A DNA stretch of 63,884 bases, counting the filler, from a bacterium (GTDB lineage: Bacteria; UBA9089; CG2-30-40-21; SBAY01): NCBI GenBank assembly GCA_040757115.1. It is 10 parts of 10 records of this genome, joined end to end, with 100 filler letters (N's around TTAATTAATTAA, not from the genome) between each part and the next. Parts side by side here need not be neighbours in the genome. Positions count along the whole stretch, not along the records: positions 52,856 to 56,996 come from JBFLYA010000301.1; 9 more parts are not named here. The stretch is one strand, 5' to 3'. The notes beneath the pieces are model-generated. The model ran no database searches. It was not told the origin of the DNA and saw nothing but the letters and a program-made list of their open reading frames with translations. Both the position numbers and the translations under genes were made by a program. This document shows positions 2,029-56,996 of this stretch, in pieces (the stretch's first letter is position 1; each line of letters starts with the position of its first letter).

Positions 2029-5000
2029 TTATCGAATCACGGCAATCTTACCAAGTTTCGACATCGTCTTACCTTCGTTGTTGGAGATTATCATTCTAAA
2101 GATATAGACGCCATTAGCTACTTCTTTACCAACATCGTTTCTACCCTTCCATTCAATCTCAACTACCTGTTTAACTCCCTGAACAGTATTTCTTGAAGTA
2201 GAGGCTATGCCTGCTTTTTCCTCAGTCCACACCAGATCACCAGCAATATCATAAATATTCACGATTACTCTTAATCCGACGACTTGGGCGGTTGCATCTA
2301 ATACACCAACTATATCTGTTATACCATCATAAGTTGGGTTTGGACAGTTATAAGCATCGATTAAGTTAAAGTCTGTTGTCGTCCCATTCAGAGGTGGAGT
2401 AATTGGCGGTGCAGGACTACCTTGTATGACGACAATAGGTCCTGTCATCGTCCCTCCTGTTGCTGAACCAACACACATCATCCCATCTTTTCCAATTGCA
2501 TTAAATAGATATGTATATGTGCCCGGTTCTGTAAAGCAAGGGAACACAATTCTATAATAACCATCCCATTTAGGTCCACTACCCGGAACTAAACTTAATG
2601 GGAAGGGACTACCAGCCATACGAACACCATCTTTATATAGCCAGAGATGGATATATTGAGGTTCATCACCATCTATATCATAATATCGAACTTTATAAGT
2701 AAATGAAGTTACATTTACTGTTCCATAATCAGGGTCAACTCCATCAGATGTAAATCCAGACTCACCTGTCCAGGTAAGTATTGGAGCATTGGTTACAGCA
2801 GGTCCAGTCTTATCTCCAGTAGCAGGTAATTTCACATCTAGATTAGCCGGATCATAAGCATTAATCCAATATTTATAACTTCCCGTCTGTAAAGTCGTAG
2901 TTGCCATATAAATTCCACAACTTTGCGTTCCAATTCCATCATTAAACCAGGTCATAGTTAAAGTAGCCACCTCATCACCATTCTTTTTAACATGCAATAG
3001 TGGATAGCCAGGTTTTGGCAGGTCATTATTCAAATCACGATATCTAACTTTGAAGGTAAAGATAGTTCCCGTTGTCCCCATTTCCGGGTCTAATCCATCA
3101 GATACATAACCACCTGTCCCTACCCATGATAATTCTGGTCTCCAATTACCTCCACCAGTAACTACAGGACCATAATTAGTAGAAGTAGGTGTTGCCATCT
3201 TCCGATATATATCCATTGCTTCAAAATAGTAGGAATAATTTGAGTTATTATATGGTAGTATTATTAGAGGATTAGAATATACCCTACCAGAACTAATATT
3301 TCCTCCATCATGATAAGGTAGTATCATTGGACTCCCTGGAATATCTACTCCACCAATTAATATATGAACCTTCGGATAGCCAGAATAAGGCACATTCCCT
3401 TCTGAATCTTGATATTTAACTGAGAAAGTATACCTGGTGCTTACATTACCACTAGGTGGATTCACATCACCATTAGATAATACTGGTGCACTATTAACAG
3501 CAGGTGCTATCTTCACTTGAATCCCTGCACCACCAGCTGTCAATCCTGTTATATCTTTTGCTTCAAATTGATAGGTATAGATACCTGTAGGTGCAGGTAA
3601 AGTAGTCCTTGTTTCATATAGGACACCCGCCGCATAAGTAACCGTTGCGGGACTTACTCTGGTTAACGGTAAGATTGTCTCAGCTCCTCCTGTAGTCTTG
3701 ATTTTTACCCGTGGATATCCGGCTAATGGTGCCTCATTATTCCCATCACTATATTTTACTCTATAGGTAAATATAGTGCTATCAGGCTCACCTTGTTCTG
3801 GGTCTAACCCATCATACAGATAGTTCCTTTCACCTGTCCATAACAAGAGCGGTGCGACAGGAGCATCAACCCCGGTCAATATAGGCCCAATATATTCTTG
3901 AGTTGGTGTTCCAAGAGCTAATACTCCATTTCTATCTTTTGCCGCAAAACGATATGTGTATGTCCCCGAATAAAGTAAACTGATAACAGTATAATATTCT
4001 ACTCCATTAACATAATCAATAGGAACTTTATACATCATCGGATAACCTATACCCTCATAAGGATACCCCGCTCCATTTCGACGGATATATACTTTTACAC
4101 CATCGGTAGGCGACGGAGGATCTCCATCAGTATCTTGATATATCACTTTAAAGGTAACTACTTTGGGTTTTGCACCAGTTTGAATATCCACCCCGCTTGT
4201 GCCATTATAAGGTGTTTGTGAAATAAAACTTAATACAGGTGGATTACTTATTTTAGGTCCTGTCTTTGTTCCCATTGGCTGAGATTGAGGATAAACTGAT
4301 GAAACTCCCTTTATATCCTTTACCTCAAATCTATATTTATAGTCTGTGCCCGTTAAGTATAATGGTAATTCTTTCTTATATAACTTACCATCTGTATAAG
4401 TTATATCTAATGGGTCATTATGGTCCATCACATAAGGGCTACCGGGCACGGGTTCATTATCACCTCTAAAAACATACAGTAATGGATAGCCACCTAATGG
4501 TGGGTCATTATCAGCATCGGTATATTTTACCAGATAAGTAAATGTATCTCCAGATTTACCTGTTTCTGGTTCAATACCATCATACAGATAATCAGTAATT
4601 CCTGCCCAGCTTAATACTGGTGGCTTACTAATTATTGGTCCAACCATCAAAGTCCAGGTTGGTGTGCCTTCAGCTGAAACTCCATTTATATTCTTTGCCT
4701 CAAATATATATGTATAAATACCCTGTAGAGTCAGTGGATATATCAGTGAATGTATCTGACCAGTCAGAGGGTTACCGGAAACATAGTACATTGGAAGTGT
4801 ATAGAGTAAGCTTCCCTCTCTATAAACCTTTACCCATACCCTATTGCCATATGGCAGGTTACCTGCGGAATCTTGATATTTTATCCGATAAGTATAAAGA
4901 TTATATGGAGAAGTACTTATCGGATAAACTCCACCTTCTTGGTAGTTAGGTTCACCCGTCCAACTCAAAATAGGTGGCAGACTAATCTTTGGACCTAAAT

Positions 5001-52501: not shown

Positions 52502-52755
52502 GTAACCGTTCAGGTGGTAATTTACCGCAGAGACGCAGAGAAACAGAGAGGAAAATATCTTTTTTTTCGCGTTTTTCGGTGTTTAAAAAGGCGTAACCGT
52601 TCAGGCTATATATCAAAAGTGTAAGAAAGGGGATATGGAGATAAGATAATAGAAATAGATTGAAATTTATAGAAATAGGTAGAAATTGATTGTGGAAAAC
52701 AACAAATTTCCATAAATTTCTATTAGTTTCTATTAATTTCAATTTTTTTAATAAT
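52502..52755. mobile_element. Two adjacent IS66-like-ended MITE pieces (52502 GCAGAGAC type; 52593 high-copy type, cut by gap)
   Basis: GTAACCGTTCAGGTGGTAATTTACCGCAGAGAC matches 40148. GTAACCGTTCAGGCTATATATC is the reverse complement of the 57206 end. Confidence 0.8.
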
Positions 52756-52855: not shown

Positions 52856-52997
52856 AGGCACGCCGATGCTTGGGTTTTTGGGAGATTTTTTAGTCAACTT
52901 TGAGATTCCTGACTACTGGGGCATTGGCAAATCAGTGTCACGCGGGTTTGGAACAATGGTAAGGCAGAAAACAGACAAAGAGGAAAGAGGTGAATGA
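52856..52997 (+). CDS. cas6: Cas6 C-terminal fragment (5' end in gap)
   Basis: GTPMLGFLGDFLVNFEIPDYWGIGKSVSRGFGT contains the Cas6 glycine-rich loop; stop overlaps the ATG at 52994. Confidence 0.8.
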
Positions 52998-53371
52998 AAA
53001 AACGAATGAAGGAAACTAATCCAAAGGCAATCTTTAATCCAATTCTATTCTGGGATACACAGGACATAGACATTGAGAAAAACGCAGGTTATATTATTAG
53101 CCGAGTACTAGACTTTGGTGATGAGAAGGGCATTAAAATATTAAGAACTATCTACCCGGATGAAAAACTTATTGAGGTTATTAAAAAAAGACGGGGATTG
53201 ATGCCTCAAACTGCAAAGTTCTGGGCGGTTTATTTCAATATCCCGAAAGAGGAGATAACATGTTTGAAAATGTATTGCCCGAAAAACAGCATTGAGTTAA
53301 TTACTAATATTTCATCCAAACTCAATGATTTTTACTTAGCTGGTGGAACAGGTCTTGCACTCCAACTTTGA
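52994..53371 (+). CDS. DUF6922-like protein running into a truncated AbiEii-type NTase N-terminus
   Basis: LFWD...IDIEKNAGYIISRVLDFGD. The tail FYLAGGTGLALQL is an AbiEii N-terminal motif; an out-of-frame start MFENVLP sits at ~53260. Confidence 0.7.
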   Translation: MKKRMKETNPKAIFNPILFWDTQDIDIEKNAGYIISRVLDFGDEKGIKILRTIYPDEKLIEVIKKRRGLMPQTAKFWAVYFNIPKEEITCLKMYCPKNSIELITNISSKLNDFYLAGGTGLALQL

Positions 53372-53391
53372 AGAAAAAGGAGAATAAGGAT

Positions 53392-53721
53392 ATGAATGAA
53401 AGGGATAAGTCATTGATATTAGATTTTAAAAGAGGTATTTCCCATGAGATTTCACAACATATTAGGCGACTGATTGTGTTTGGTTCAAGGGTTGAAGGAA
53501 AGGCAAAAGAAGACTCAGACCTTGACCTATTGGCGTTGGTAGATGAGAAAACCCCTGAGATTGAAAAGGAACTGGAGGATATTGCCTATCAGGTTATGTG
53601 GGATTATGACTTCAAACCTATCATATCCCTTAAAGTATTTGAGGAATCTTGTTTTTACAATGCACTTAAAAAAGGATTTTCTTTCTATCAATATGTTGAG
53701 AAAGAGGGGGTTCCTATATGA
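53392..53721 (+). CDS. Minimal nucleotidyltransferase (MNT antitoxin)
   Basis: VFGSRVEGKAKEDSDLDLL and C-terminal VEKEGVPI. Confidence 0.9.
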   Translation: MNERDKSLILDFKRGISHEISQHIRRLIVFGSRVEGKAKEDSDLDLLALVDEKTPEIEKELEDIAYQVMWDYDFKPIISLKVFEESCFYNALKKGFSFYQYVEKEGVPI

Positions 53722-54095
53722 CAGAGCAAGTAAAAAGGCTTATTGAGAAATCAGAACACGCAATTGAGGTAGCTGAAGAATTAATCAAAGACGGTTATCC
53801 ATCAGATGCGGCCAGTAAAATCTATTACTCTATGTTTTATGCCGCACAGGCTCTCTTGAAATCTGAAGGGATTGATGTGGTAAAGCATTCTGCAGTTGAG
53901 TCAGCTTTGGGATATTATTTTGCAAAGCCGGGCAGGATTGATTCTAAGTATCACAGGATGTTGATAAATGCAAGAAAGATTAGAGAAATTGCTGATTATG
54001 ATATTCAGGAAGAAATTGTAGAACCAACAGCATCACTTAAGATAGAGGAGGGTAAGACCTTCCTCTCTGCCATTAAACATCTTCTTGGAATTTAA
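53718..54095 (+). CDS. HEPN domain protein (MNT-HEPN pair)
   Basis: YYSMFYAAQALL, KHSAV and REIADY; ATGA-coupled to the MNT. Confidence 0.9.
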   Translation: MTEQVKRLIEKSEHAIEVAEELIKDGYPSDAASKIYYSMFYAAQALLKSEGIDVVKHSAVESALGYYFAKPGRIDSKYHRMLINARKIREIADYDIQEEIVEPTASLKIEEGKTFLSAIKHLLGI

Positions 54096-54212
54096 GGCAC
54101 GCCTATGCTCGGATTCTTAGGAGATTTTTCCGTCAACTTTGAGATTCCTGACTACTGGGGCATTGGTAAATCCGTCTCGCGTGGGTTTGGAACAGTAAAG
54201 CGAGTAGAATAA
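54095..54212 (+). pseudogene. cas6: Second, orphan copy of the cas6 3' end
   Basis: GTPMLGFLGDFSVNFEIPDYWGIGKSVSRGFGTVKRVE*; 88/100 nt identical to 52856-52955. Confidence 0.8.
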
Positions 54213-54214
54213 AT

Positions 54215-54312
54215 CTCTCGCAAAGGCGCAAAGGGACAAAAATTGATTAAAAATGGTATTACCCGGATTGTAAATAGATTATAATCTTTGCGGTCTTTGC
54301 GTCTTTGCGAGA
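54215..54312. mobile_element. Collapsed GxxExxY cassette with GCAAAG-type inverted arms
   Basis: TCTCGCAAAGGCGCAAAG ... CTTTGCGTCTTTGCGAGA enclosing LIKNGITRIVNRL*, a typical GxxExxY C-terminus. Confidence 0.7.
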
Positions 54313-54319
54313 AAATAAA

Positions 54320-55294
54320 ATGCAATTAGTCATCAATACCTACGGTTCTTATCTCCAAAAAAACGGTGATTGCTTTAAGGTCAAAAGGGATGACCAGACC
54401 TTTGAGGTCTCGGTTAAAAAGGTCTCGTCTATCCTCATTGCCACCGCCGCTTATATCACTACCGATGCCATTAAACTGGCAATGGACAACAATATTGACA
54501 TTGTTTTCCTTGATGAATTTGGTGACCCTTACGGTAGGGTATGGCACAGTAAGCTGGGCAGCACCACCTTAATCCGAAGAAGACAGATTGAGATTGCTGA
54601 GGTCGAAGAGGGACTATCCCTTGCCCTTTCCTGGGTTAAAAAGAAGTTTGAAAATCAGATAGACCTACTTAAAAGACTCAGGAACACACGAACACAGAAA
54701 TCAGCAGAGATCACCAGCTACATTGAGAAATTGGTGAATTGCCAAAAGACATTGGAGACCATTTCAGGGACAATTGAAGAAAGACGCGGGACAATTATGG
54801 GCATAGAAGGTAGTGGTGGCAGGATATACTTTGAGTGTCTAAGTTTTCTTGTCCCTGAACGCTATAAGTTTAACGGTCGCAGTAGAAACCCAGCTCAGGA
54901 TGAATTCAACGCCCTCTTAAACTATGCCTACGGTATTCTCTACGGAAAAGTAGAAAAAGCCTGTATCATCGCTGGGCTTGACCCTTATGTAGGGATTATC
55001 CATACCGATAATTATAACAAGAAGTCATTAGTCTTTGATTTAATAGAGCTTTTTCGAATATGGGCTGATGAAACGGTAATAAACCTTTTTGCCGCAAGGA
55101 AGGTAAAAGAGGGTTGTTTTGATAAACTAAAAAACGGCTTTACATTGAATAAAGAAGGGAAGACTTTGCTGATTGGGGAATTTAGTGCCTTTCTGGATGA
55201 GTCTATCCGATATGGAGGCAGGAATATCAAGCGTGAAAACATTATCCAATTTGAATGCCACCGGATAGCCAACGAATTGATAAAGGGAAAATAG
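54320..55294 (+). CDS. cas1: CRISPR-associated endonuclease Cas1
   Basis: MGIEGSGGRIYF, NALLNYAYGILY, GLDPYVGIIH and SLVFDLIELFR. Confidence 0.96.
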   Translation: MQLVINTYGSYLQKNGDCFKVKRDDQTFEVSVKKVSSILIATAAYITTDAIKLAMDNNIDIVFLDEFGDPYGRVWHSKLGSTTLIRRRQIEIAEVEEGLSLALSWVKKKFENQIDLLKRLRNTRTQKSAEITSYIEKLVNCQKTLETISGTIEERRGTIMGIEGSGGRIYFECLSFLVPERYKFNGRSRNPAQDEFNALLNYAYGILYGKVEKACIIAGLDPYVGIIHTDNYNKKSLVFDLIELFRIWADETVINLFAARKVKEGCFDKLKNGFTLNKEGKTLLIGEFSAFLDESIRYGGRNIKRENIIQFECHRIANELIKGK

Positions 55295-55331
55295 CCATAA
55301 TCCTGTGATTCACAGAAATAGGAGGTAGTAG

Positions 55332-55709
<378 letters not shown>

Positions 55710-55710
55710 A

Positions 55711-56182
55711 CAGTGTCGGTGTCGGTGGCAGTGTTGGTGTCAGGAAGAAAGGAGGTAAAGGAGAGATGAAAAGTGTTGAAGATCTTGATGTATTTAGGTT
55801 GGCACATGAAGTAACCTTAGAGATTTATAGTCTTACAAATAATTTTCCAGAGTATGAAAGGTATGGTTTGATTTCACAAATTAGGAGATCCTCAATGTCT
55901 ATACCTATGAACTTAATGGAGGGTAGTCATAGACTTAATACAAAGGAATACAGACAATTTGTCGGTATAGCACGTGGCTCTGTTGGTGAATTGAAATATC
56001 AACTTATGTTATCTCATGATTTGGGATATATTAGTGAGGACACCTACCATCATCTTCGCGGAAAGGCTGAAAGTATTAGTAAAATGCTGACAAGGCTGGT
56101 AGAATCCTTGACTGACATTGATCCCCATCACCGACACTGACACCGACACCGATACCGACACTGACACTGACACCGACACCGA
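55711..56182. mobile_element. Four-helix-bundle cassette bounded by inverted hexamer arms (GTGTCG / CACCGA, CACTGA)
   Basis: Left arm 55711-55743 and right arm ~56112-56182 are complementary. The cassette sits exactly between the cas2 stop and the cas4 RBS. Confidence 0.8.
55766..56140 (+). CDS. Four helix bundle protein (23S rRNA IVS-protein family)
   Basis: DLDVFRLAH, FPEYERYGLISQIRRSSMSIPMNLMEG and IARGSVGELKYQL. Confidence 0.93.
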   Translation: MKSVEDLDVFRLAHEVTLEIYSLTNNFPEYERYGLISQIRRSSMSIPMNLMEGSHRLNTKEYRQFVGIARGSVGELKYQLMLSHDLGYISEDTYHHLRGKAESISKMLTRLVESLTDIDPHHRH

Positions 56183-56192
56183 GGTTTATATT

Positions 56193-56786
56193 ATGGATAC
56201 CGAATCTACACCAATGATAACCCCATCTGAGGTAATCGAACATCTTTTTTGCCCTCGATTTACCTATTTTATGAATTGCTTAAAGATACCTCAACATGAG
56301 GAAAAAAGATATAAGGTGTTAAAGGGCAGGGAACTACATTCAAGGAGAGAGCAAGAAAACAGAGAATACTTGCGTAAAAGGATAGGATGTATTGGCAAAG
56401 AGATATTGGTTTATTTAGCCTCACCAAGACTTCGGGTGCGTGGGATTGTGGATGAAGTATTGACTCTAACTGATGGAAGTATGTCGCCACTTGATTATAA
56501 ATATACCGAATTTAATGATTTCCTGTTCAAGACACATAAGATTCAATCGGTAATTTATGCGATGTTGATAAAAGAGATATATCAGAAGCCAGTAAACGAA
56601 GGTTATATCTGTTATGTGCGAAGCGGTAATACCTTAAAAAAAATACTTTACAAATCAGATGATTTTGAATATACTAATAAAGTAATTGATGAAATCTTCA
56701 AGGTGATAATGTTAGGTTACTATCCAAAGAAGACTTCGTATGCTAATAGATGCGTTGACTGTTGTTATCAGAATATTTGTGTGTGA
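56193..56786 (+). CDS. cas4: CRISPR-associated exonuclease Cas4
   Basis: FCPRFTYF, GRELH, GIVDEV...PLDYK, Q...YA and C-terminal RCVDCCYQNIC. Confidence 0.95.
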   Translation: MDTESTPMITPSEVIEHLFCPRFTYFMNCLKIPQHEEKRYKVLKGRELHSRREQENREYLRKRIGCIGKEILVYLASPRLRVRGIVDEVLTLTDGSMSPLDYKYTEFNDFLFKTHKIQSVIYAMLIKEIYQKPVNEGYICYVRSGNTLKKILYKSDDFEYTNKVIDEIFKVIMLGYYPKKTSYANRCVDCCYQNICV

Positions 56787-56959
56787 ACAGTGAAAATTTG
56801 TAACTATGTGGTATCTCAGAAATTAGAAGAGCAAAAAGGATGTAAAAGGGGGTGAGAAATGGGTAAAGTTTACGCTTTAAAGGGGATAAATAGGCTCAAA
56901 ATAGACCGAGTAAAAAACAGGGAATTATTTGAGATCAAAAGGGTTAAAAACAAAATGGT
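56787..56959 (+). promoter_or_regulatory. Putative CRISPR leader
   Basis: Non-coding, A-rich stretch between cas4 and the first repeat. Confidence 0.65.
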
Positions 56960-56996
56960 GTTAGCGACCAACTTCCATTAAAACAAGGATTGAAAC
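56960..56996 (+). CRISPR. First CRISPR repeat (37 nt); array truncated by contig end
   Basis: GTTAGCGACCAACTTCCATTAAAACAAGGATTGAAAC carries the ATTGAAAC 3' handle, and the contig ends exactly at the repeat end. Only one copy is visible. Confidence 0.8.

Follow-up and report, generated by a model that had tools for sequence, protein, structure and literature searches.

Repeated cas6 gene ends flanking toxin-antitoxin cassettes at the border of CRISPR effector and adaptation modules

Introduction

C-terminal displacement in rhs genes is said to have been described by Jackson et al. in 2009, and the orphan cdiA-CT/cdiI modules of contact-dependent growth inhibition (CDI) systems show a like displacement. 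In these systems the gene has a conserved portion and, behind it, a variable end with its cognate downstream gene, and older ends, derived from different alleles through horizontal transfer, are pushed downstream as co-oriented orphans that each begin with a piece of the conserved region. The present work concerns a comparable arrangement at the 3' end of cas6 in a 63,884-nucleotide (nt) stretch of bacterial DNA (the window; GenBank assembly GCA_040757115.1), in one contig of which (JBFLYA010000301.1; 4141 nt, window positions 52856-56996) two copies of the cas6 3' end bracket a cassette of putative toxin and antitoxin genes upstream of cas1. As in rhs and CDI loci, a conserved portion precedes a variable end and a downstream gene, the displaced pieces are co-oriented and each starts with conserved sequence, and the ends appear to come from different alleles. 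The loci differ in that the conserved protein is a CRISPR RNA endonuclease rather than a toxin, that the variable part of Cas6 is an extension of 3-30 amino acids with the toxins encoded in separate open reading frames (ORFs), and that the site is the border of two CRISPR modules, where whole effector modules are swapped.

The arrangement also recalls integron arrays, in which small, co-oriented and mostly promoterless cassettes stand behind one entry point and, in large integrons, commonly carry toxin-antitoxin genes. Phages and islands integrate into gene 3' ends (tRNA genes, icd) and supply a replacement end, for which they need an integrase and a fixed crossover core. What the present loci have in common with these elements is an intact gene whose end occurs twice, with synonymous differences between the two copies.

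Sequential displacement was described for effector-immunity modules of the type VI secretion system (T6SS) of Vibrio cholerae (Kirchberger et al. 2017, PMC5361080); the sections of that report treating the mechanism propose homology-facilitated illegitimate recombination, with scar-less homologous replacement as the commoner event. A review of 2015 (PMC4390879) deals with toxin-antitoxin pairs within cas cassettes and with modules that evolve and are exchanged independently, and its relevant passages describe no repeated gene-end scar or defined joint. CreTA is an RNA toxin-antitoxin that, according to the pertinent parts of three reports (PMC9458426, PMC8501985, PMC12737573), guards type I CRISPR-Cas. 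In the literature searched, repeated cas6 ends or a defined joint or scar were not described, and supplementary locus maps might show them.

An earlier note on the window had read the duplicated gene end as the trace of cargo that enters the CRISPR operon by recombining into cas6 and supplies a replacement tail. The results reported here partly support this interpretation, which was right in kind, imprecise for this locus and silent on mechanism.

Results

Repeated cas6 ends in the window

The two copies, W1 (52856-52955) and W2 (54095-54194), are direct repeats on the plus strand, as are all genes of the contig named below. Direct comparison and a repeat search of the window showed 88 of 100 positions to be identical in a gap-free alignment with a 35-nt identical core (52893-52927, equal to 54132-54166); a third tail copy was not detected by the window search, W1 and W2 being the sole ones. 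The copies share the peptide GTPMLGFLGDF(L/S)VNFEIPDYWGIGKSVSRGFGT, and both include the G-rich loop GIGKSVSRGFG, which we take to be the motif near the C-terminus of Cas6. The identity of the peptide, on which the earlier reading depended, was confirmed with the Pfam profile Cas6b_C (PF17262), which scored 47.9 bits for W1 and 53.6 bits for W2 (cut-off 39.4) over profile positions 79-112 and 79-114 only, respectively.

W1 is open from the contig start and continues into a C-terminal extension, (M)VRQKTDKEERGE, that ends with a stop (52956-52997; ORF 52866-52997). The TGA overlaps the ATG of a DUF6922 gene (ATGA), and an extension of this type also stands ahead of DUF6922 in the nearest genome, G001, and in G018 (handles beginning with G, C and L denote genomes, contigs and loci). 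W2, with the extension VKRVE and a stop, occupies 54095-54212; it starts with the last base of the stop codon of a HEPN gene, has an in-frame stop directly upstream and is followed by cas1 after 108 nt. Both junctions are as first described. An intact Cas6b gene, with Cas6b_N and a full Cas6b_C in one frame of about 220-240 amino acids, is not seen, W2 being a fragment and W1 being cut at the contig start. A scan of the window revealed neither a cas6 body nor an effector gene elsewhere in it, and effector genes were likewise absent from G001, G018, G021 and G031.

Ten of the 12 nt differences between the copies (codons 1-33) are in synonymous codons and the other two are in one Leu/Ser codon. 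As a background, the same 99-nt block was compared among 63 full-length cas6 genes from other loci, which gave a mean identity of 79.9% (standard deviation, sd, 4.8) for 1953 pairs; 88% was reached in 4.9% of the pairs and an identical run of at least 35 nt in 0.6%. Based on these values, W1 and W2 look like two different cas6 alleles that share one unusually long identical tract. Recomputation thus reproduced the repeat figures of the earlier note, and the background identity together with the synonymous pattern bears out its view that the tails come from different, recently functional alleles.

Assembly and copy number

The assembly was checked with public run X1, probably the source sample, of which independent k=31 Logan contigs were compared with the stretch; genome-wide copy counts were taken from Logan depth and from G001. 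Runs X2 and X3 contain next to none of the stretch and have no bearing on habitat or absence. A Logan contig of 1264 nt spans 52898-54161 at a depth of 309, bridging core to core, and over W1 and the cargo the depth hardly changes (about 309-313). Since the contig of the 35-nt core has a depth of 600 versus 309 for the cargo, the shared core is present in two copies and no more. A second identical pair of minimal nucleotidyltransferase (MNT) and HEPN genes upstream of W1 was considered and rejected, the depth of MNT-HEPN being single (309).

The contig indeed starts at the repeat boundary, 52856, which had been taken as a hint of further copies. Two X1 contigs of 6595 and 6596 nt, with depths of 102 and 210 that add up to that of W1, both end on 52856-52885, so that two upstream haplotypes converge where the contig starts; the break results from the convergence of these sequence variants and does not speak for extra copies. 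In the assembly graph at k=31 the core forms a node with two entries and two exits, for which the Logan contigs alone leave the left and right sides unphased and which the window contig phases. Orthologous arrays are contiguous in contig C287 of G001 and contig C20 of G018, and the copies there share at most 14 and 26 identical nt, respectively, runs too short to mislead an assembly at k=31.

Arrays in the nearest relatives and beyond

The related contig of G001 (C287, 4.3 kb) begins upstream of a tail piece of 21 codons; DUF6922, an intact AbiEii, another tail piece, Fic, an 11-codon cas1 remnant, a weak PIN-domain ORF, a small ORF and cas4 follow in this order, with the Fic ATG overlapping the stop of the second tail by 8 nt. 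In this contig (L001 645-1503; L033 ~2232-3090) cas1 consists of its upstream region plus the 11 codons (MQLVINTYGSY), cas1 and cas2 being otherwise gone, and the PIN-domain ORF scores 19.2 bits, below the cut-off of 23.6. In G018:C20 the order is block-DUF6922-AbiEii-block-Fic'-cas1. The first of these blocks is an orphan that follows a 350-amino-acid gene and a remnant of about 20 nt of the HEPN 3' end that also stands ahead of W2. W1 is 92% identical to this orphan copy and may itself be an orphan, because its near-identical counterpart is one. Profile searches detected neither Cas6b_N nor Csc2 in G001, G018 and G021, and the tails in this lineage are leftovers beside an adaptation module.

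The junction of HEPN stop and block is common to the window, L107 (Brocadia) and L084 (Nitrospirota), and its remnant is that of G018:C20 (L029); the MNT of the window is likewise homologous to those of L107 and L084. As the junction is shared with loci in other phyla, MNT-HEPN plus tail appears to be an older, pre-formed unit, and W2 would not have been left by cargo entering cas6 at this locus.

A search of 40 relatives of G001 with Cas6b_C yielded five full-length matches and 11 C-terminal-only matches. All 11 start at profile positions 51-98, end at 112-114 and belong to 4 of the 40 genomes; two weak matches (E 0.004 and 0.007) were to the N-terminal region. Arrays are present in G018, G021, G031 and G001; those of G018 and G021 contain three tail pieces at most, and G031 combines a full cas6 with a displaced tail piece. 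For a wider scan one genome per species was searched with an alignment of the tails, and the best 80 of the 317 relatives found were kept, resulting in 79 loci from Planctomycetota, Nitrospirota, Desulfobacterota, Omnitrophota and other phyla. One to two extra C-terminal cas6 fragments on the same strand, 0.6-1.9 kb downstream of cas6, occur in 16 of the 79 loci. N-terminal-only pieces and minus-strand fragments were found in none of the 79, and a duplicated cas1 N-terminal motif in none of the 51 loci having the motif. Up to three tail copies are present (G018:C287, L037, L084, L085), in agreement with the proposal that the cas6 3' end is a recurrent stacking site for toxin-antitoxin and abortive-infection arrays. 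Stops, frameshifts and substitutions reveal decay of fragments in L038, L045, L052, L069, L082, L084, L093 and L102, as expected for scars. The tail-cargo-tail pattern is general, and it marks the end of the cas6 gene as a recurrent recombination joint.

Surveys of the phyla of G001 (24 genomes) and G031 (5 genomes) added nothing new. A metagenome scan with DUF6922 gave two loci, one of them outside CRISPR and the other with the order cas6-DUF6922-AbiEii-cas1 and no fragment, which indicates that duplication is an occasional outcome and not the rule. In both orphan tails of L085 (6747-6842 and 7937-8029) the G-rich loop is interrupted by one and the same eight-residue insertion (HVVSEANL), one tail being a copy of the other or converted from it.

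The conserved block at the cas6-cas1 border

The recurring piece is a conserved 3' block of type I cas6b, about 105 nt long, that comprises codons ~K183-T217 including the G-rich loop. Across phyla the block shows more than 90% amino acid identity and about 80% nt identity with identical runs of 20-40 nt, and it is the only strongly conserved DNA at the border of effector and adaptation modules. In the 41 loci where a full cas6 has cas1 downstream of it, the two genes are adjacent in 9, separated by 570-2787 nt of cargo with no fragment in 23, and separated by cargo with fragments in 9. The cas1 ATG lies between 16 nt inside cas6 and 6 nt past it in six of the nine adjacent loci; the block therefore ends at the border of the two modules. 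This comparison of cas6-cas1 junctions, of a kind proposed in the earlier note, shows that insertion need not duplicate the tail.

Type I-D, recognized by Csc2 and Cas10d effector genes beside cas6, is suggested for L045, where Csc2 lies upstream of cas6. In L113 cas6 is preceded by a putative Cas3-like gene. Database contigs begin (L077, L089, L104) or end (L079, L096) within about 25 nt of the block, apparently a repeat shared between genomes at which metagenome assemblies break. Two interpretations of the block were abandoned. Mimicry of a CRISPR repeat (GGTTTGGAAC compared by eye with GGATTGAAAC) was dropped because the third codon positions vary freely, and a Cas1-type target-site duplication was rejected in view of the varying copy lengths and of a divergence as large as that between unrelated alleles.

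Evidence for recombination at the block

Tail copies within a locus are 67-94% identical compared with a background of 80% (sd 5), which indicates different alleles and not in-situ duplication. For 6 of 17 within-locus pairs the longest identical run is of a length reached by only 5% of between-locus pairs (binomial p = 1.2e-4). All 54 of 54 block bases compared are identical in L107, in a run of 67 nt in all.

Comparisons between loci place breakpoints at both edges of the block. At the 3' edge, L107 and L085 are 94.4% identical over 858 nt of cas6 and upstream DNA (~98-99% over the first ~590 nt, by eye), and the similarity is lost directly behind the GFGT codons; in L037, L050 and L035 an identity of about 90% reaches as far as the cas6 end, past which the sequences are unrelated. 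At the 5' edge, L063 and L066 are 94.3% identical over 3307 nt from the first bases of the block, with unrelated DNA upstream that is a cas6 body in L066 and the stop codon of a cas3-like gene in L063. The junction of cas3 stop and block is common to L063 and L098. A block followed by nucleotidyltransferase (NTase) and HepT genes stands after cas3 (L063), TumE (L087), PIN (L082), MNT-HEPN (L038) and a full cas6 (L066).

In L063 (1-6001), L098 (1-5998) and L099 (1-5922) an I-B-like module, cas6'-cas8-cas7-cas5-cas3, is joined via an orphan block to cas1-cas2; the module was named by gene order and sizes, not by Pfam. L099 has a 76-nt insert before the block that repeats the end of cas3.

Cargo and neighboring genes

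The cargo between W1 and W2 was identified by Pfam searches and by comparison with G001:C287, which confirmed the DUF6922, broken AbiEii, MNT and HEPN genes of the first description. The DUF6922 ORF (52994-53371; PF21956, E 5.2e-13), a putative antitoxin partner of AbiEii, is 91% identical in nt to that of G001:C287, and its 3' end is fused by a frameshift onto an AbiEii 5' remnant (53260 to ~53371). When compared with the intact 208-amino-acid AbiEii of G001:C287 (PF08843), the remnant shows a frameshift of 1 nt behind codon 8-9 and retains only about 34 codons. Homology stops at ~53368-53377, and no cas6 tail stands where the remnant meets the MNT cassette. MNT, a putative antitoxin (53392-53721; NTP_transf_2, E 2.8e-9; Polbeta), and HEPN, a putative toxin (53718-54095; PF05168, E 1.3e-12), are adjacent with MNT first and overlap by ATGA (53718-53721), which is the order of an MNT-HEPN pair.

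A Pfam scan of 89 ORFs in or just after the arrays, for the 25 most frequent of 38 families, identified Polbeta (12), NTP_transf_2 (8), HEPN (5), AbiEii (4), 23S rRNA-intervening-sequence protein (IVP; 4), PIN (3) and PIN_3 (1), DUF6922 (3), TumE (3), Rv0078B antitoxin (3), MazE (2), HepT-like (2), YhcG/DUF1016 (2), Fic (1) and DUF2283 (1), and HicA was found in a separate scan of array ORFs. The same families recur in different orders and loci. Judged by these domain assignments, the cargo appears to be nearly all toxin-antitoxin modules.

The spacer between W2 and cas1 (54213-54319, the 108-nt gap) contains a multi-copy element (54260-54311) with a Logan depth of 1720 versus ~310-340 in the flanks. 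The Logan contigs of the spacer also showed a different connection (54234>54285, with 19 other letters) and several loose ends (54214, 54273, 54312-54314). It is followed by cas1 (54320-55294; PF01867, E 3.8e-81) and cas2 (55347-55709; PF09827, E 1.1e-21, residues 27-99), for which the true start is probably an internal ATG near 55404. An element of about 50 nt between cas1 and cas2 (55348-55398) overlaps the 5' part of the cas2 ORF and has more than 30 matches on different G001 contigs at 82-100% identity (query 2460-2552); it looks like a dispersed miniature repeat. Next is the gene for IVP, a four-helix-bundle family (55766-56140; PF05635, E 3.8e-37), which often accompanies these loci (it accounts for 4 of the 89 array ORFs), and then cas4 (56118-56786; PF01930, E 4e-8). 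Ahead of the Cas4 domain, the long ORF includes a short tandem CACCGACAC(T/C)GA repeat (56129-56182) that is translated as (TD)n. The contig ends in the first CRISPR repeat (56960-56996), the last 22 nt of which recur at ~73-nt spacing downstream of cas genes in 21 of 114 loci. This repeat end is common to arrays of loci assigned to different phyla, consistent with a horizontally widespread CRISPR-Cas lineage.

The window as a whole is a chain of contigs joined by N44-TTAATTAATTAA-N44 linkers, of which nine lie within 26838-61270; the first contig is 26.8 kb and the later pieces are ~4.1-4.3 kb, and features are not readable across joints. A 78-nt AT-rich repeat occurs as 97% identical copies at contig ends (57097-57174 and 63807-63884) and, by eye, as a reverse-strand copy at ~52620-52700; it is probably dispersed in the genome and the cause of assembly breaks. 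Imperfect periodic repeats of 27/55 nt are present at a contig end (60964-61170).

Discussion

The results are best explained, in our view and with moderate confidence, by C-terminal displacement in which the cas6 3' block would be the homologous stretch at which cassettes are stacked and modules swapped. DNA from another locus would recombine with the block as homologous anchor, and its other end would join illegitimately, or in a second copy of the block, or in cas1. The resident block would then stay with its downstream gene or genes and be pushed down the operon, and repetition of this event would generate co-oriented block-cargo-block arrays. A block-flanked cassette could spread to further loci by ordinary homologous recombination, and copies could undergo gene conversion. 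Recombinants that delete a resident toxin-antitoxin module would be counter-selected, which would favor stacking over replacement.

For the locus in the window, we infer an ancestor like G018:C20 or G001 with the order block-DUF6922-AbiEii-block-Fic-cas1, in which the 3' part of AbiEii, the second block and Fic would have been replaced by the pre-formed MNT-HEPN-W2 unit. The left junction of the incoming unit would be illegitimate, inside AbiEii, and the right one would lie in or near cas1. The claim that cargo enters cas6 and supplies a replacement tail was right in kind, and what needs correction is its application here, where W2 is part of the pre-formed unit. Neither copy is seen in an intact cas6, and G001, G018 and G021 are without Cas6b_N, so that a replacement tail at an intact cas6 is not borne out for this locus.

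Several observations weigh against displacement anchored in the block. The anatomy, its recurrence, the descent of the tails from different alleles, the breakpoints at the edges of the block and the junctions common to several loci are observed, and the recombination pathway, the direction of events and the role of addiction are deduced, the pathway from its end products. Cargo between cas6 and cas1 is free of fragments in 23 of the 41 loci surveyed, so that most insertions or replacements proceed without duplication, and 11 of the 17 within-locus pairs show no excess identity. The full-length tail of L037 was not replaced, as it is that of the resident gene, which matches L050 and L035 at about 90% identity over its entire length; the downstream fragments of L037 may have arrived together with their cassettes, and thus not every array arose by tail replacement. 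Fragment 5' ends cluster (by eye) at codons 182-186, right after the stop codons of at least seven different, unrelated left neighbors. Such clustering is not predicted by recombination anchored within the block, because that would give fragments shorter than the block. A vehicle was not found: none of 400 pattern matches in viral contigs was confirmed, and plasmids gave only two matches, to distant Runella Cas6 genes (58-61% identity). Finally, the fragment in the hybrid loci L063, L098 and L099 is 94-97% conserved in amino acids next to a cas3 C-terminus that is 54-64% identical, and other cas6 genes of this type are absent from these three genomes. A conserved fragment beside a diverged cas3 end requires either repeated refreshing by recombination or selection on the fragment; the L063/L066 pair shows that refreshing happens, and selection on the fragment may also act.

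Selection on the fragment is the core of a live rival, which we regard as unlikely. Recombination would be unspecific, and the tail would be kept because the displaced gene, an antitoxin or cas1, uses its translation signals. A Shine-Dalgarno-like AAAGG (codons K183-G184) lies 7 nt before the ATG of M187; with these signals the fragment would form a translatable mini-ORF whose end falls at or close to the following start codon, and the cluster of 5' ends just upstream of AAAGG-ATG would be a functional boundary. In its favor are the translational overlap of cas1 with cas6 in native loci, the overlaps of W1 with DUF6922 (ATGA), of the second G001 tail with Fic (8 nt), of L087 copy 2 with NTase (4 nt) and of the L063 block with NTase, and the retention of the M187 ATG with 5-14 nt upstream of it in at least 12 fragments beside unrelated left neighbors; the conservation of the hybrid-locus fragment next to a diverged cas3 end points the same way. 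However, many fragments start at codons 190-205 and lack M187 (G001 copies 1 and 2, L065, L103, L032), many have stops or frameshifts, and the gap to the next gene is 108 nt between W2 and cas1 and 35-360 nt in several other cases. Nor does the block hold a promoter-like site, as a sigma-70 scan gave two sites in the whole region, versus 3.4 expected, neither of them inside a block. As a bolder variant of the wider proposal given below, the orphan block may be kept as a translated mini-ORF (AAAGG, ATG of M187) that couples expression of the displaced gene.

It is improbable that the block is an att-like site for an integrase acting in trans, in the manner of an integron or as the remains of a 3'-end-targeting island. 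The cassettes are indeed small, co-oriented and stacked, one class of boundary is rather sharp (codons 182-186), W1 and W2 have a 35-nt identical core, and arrays occur across phyla. No integrase, transposase or resolvase was recognized, however, among the 25 most frequent of the 38 families of the 89 array ORFs or among singly scanned ORFs, and no IntI-type integrase among the ORFs scanned in flanks to ~6 kb. Fragment starts are spread over codons 77 to 205, and free variation at third positions leaves the block, a protein-coding repeat, with no conserved nucleotide core. W1 and W2 fold no better than shuffled sequences on both strands (z +0.58 to +1.14), unlike the folded attC site of integrons. 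An excised circle or att-like structure was not found in the same fold test and family scan. Unlike islands in gene 3' ends, with their integrase in the insert and fixed crossover core, the cargo here is 0.6-1.9 kb without a recombinase and has variable boundaries; the 1.1-kb insert of the window consists of DUF6922, the AbiEii remnant, MNT and HEPN only, and most other within-locus copies share runs of only 8-17 nt in place of the 35-nt core.

Slightly less probable still is plain decay, by which a CRISPR-Cas region in the course of degeneration would have kept two cas6 ends by chance, through illegitimate insertions and deletions independent of one another, and the block would have no special role. 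Loss of Cas6b_N and Csc2 from G001, G018 and G021, reduction of cas1 to 11 codons in G001 and truncation of AbiEii at a tail-less junction would fit. Decay does not account for the excess of C-terminal-only matches in the 40 relatives (11, versus two weak matches to the N-terminal region), for C-terminal extras in 16 of 79 loci when N-terminal-only pieces occur in none and a duplicated cas1 head in no locus, or for the common orientation of all fragments, the breakpoints at block edges and the excess of long identical tracts. A chimeric contig, fused from two strains at the 35-nt core that the copies share, for which the two upstream haplotypes (depths 102 and 210) and the unphased core at k=31 might be cited, is scarcely credible in view of the flat depth over W1 and cargo with the core at exactly double, the contiguous orthologous arrays whose copies share only short runs (G001:C287, G018:C20) and similar structures within contigs of 446 and 914 kb, results that also remove the doubt the earlier note had raised on this point.

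C-terminal displacement at the block has a close parallel in the T6SS modules, going by the sections of PMC5361080 that treat array growth: arrays grow beside a conserved upstream anchor, genes are kept where their loss is penalized, and the scar-less outcome is the commoner one, as it is here with 23 scar-less versus 9 scarred loci. The T6SS arrays differ in that immunity genes against kin are kept there, whereas addiction modules inside a cas operon and a defined, repeated coding block of ~105 nt characterize the present loci. In comparison with the loci covered in the relevant passages of PMC4390879, those described here are bacterial type I (I-D, to judge by Csc2, in L045) and I-B-like hybrids. 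They resemble CreTA, as presented in the parts of the reports cited above that bear on it, in placing addiction modules within cas loci, which they may stabilize, and differ from it in that CreTA is RNA-based and needs Cascade and Cas6 processing, whereas the cargo here consists of ordinary, putative protein toxin-antitoxin pairs. What seems new is the defined joint in the cas6 block, its repeated scar, the stacking of toxin-antitoxin genes there and the joining of a different effector module.

A wider proposal, possible but on balance doubtful, is that the cas6 3' block is a portable, integrase-free joint that moves cassettes and effector modules between phyla by homologous recombination. The I-B-like cas6'-cas8-cas7-cas5-cas3 module of L063 and L098, with the cas3 stop abutting the block, may be an example. 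If the block is such a joint, the shuffling of type I modules could be mapped base by base and the arrays would give the relative order of cassette arrivals. The finding extends C-terminal displacement from polymorphic toxins to a gene of an immune system and suggests that addiction modules ratchet themselves into CRISPR loci. If true, the border of cas6 and cas1 would be a homology-driven analogue of the integron and would provide a route by which one effector type could take over the adaptation module and array of another.

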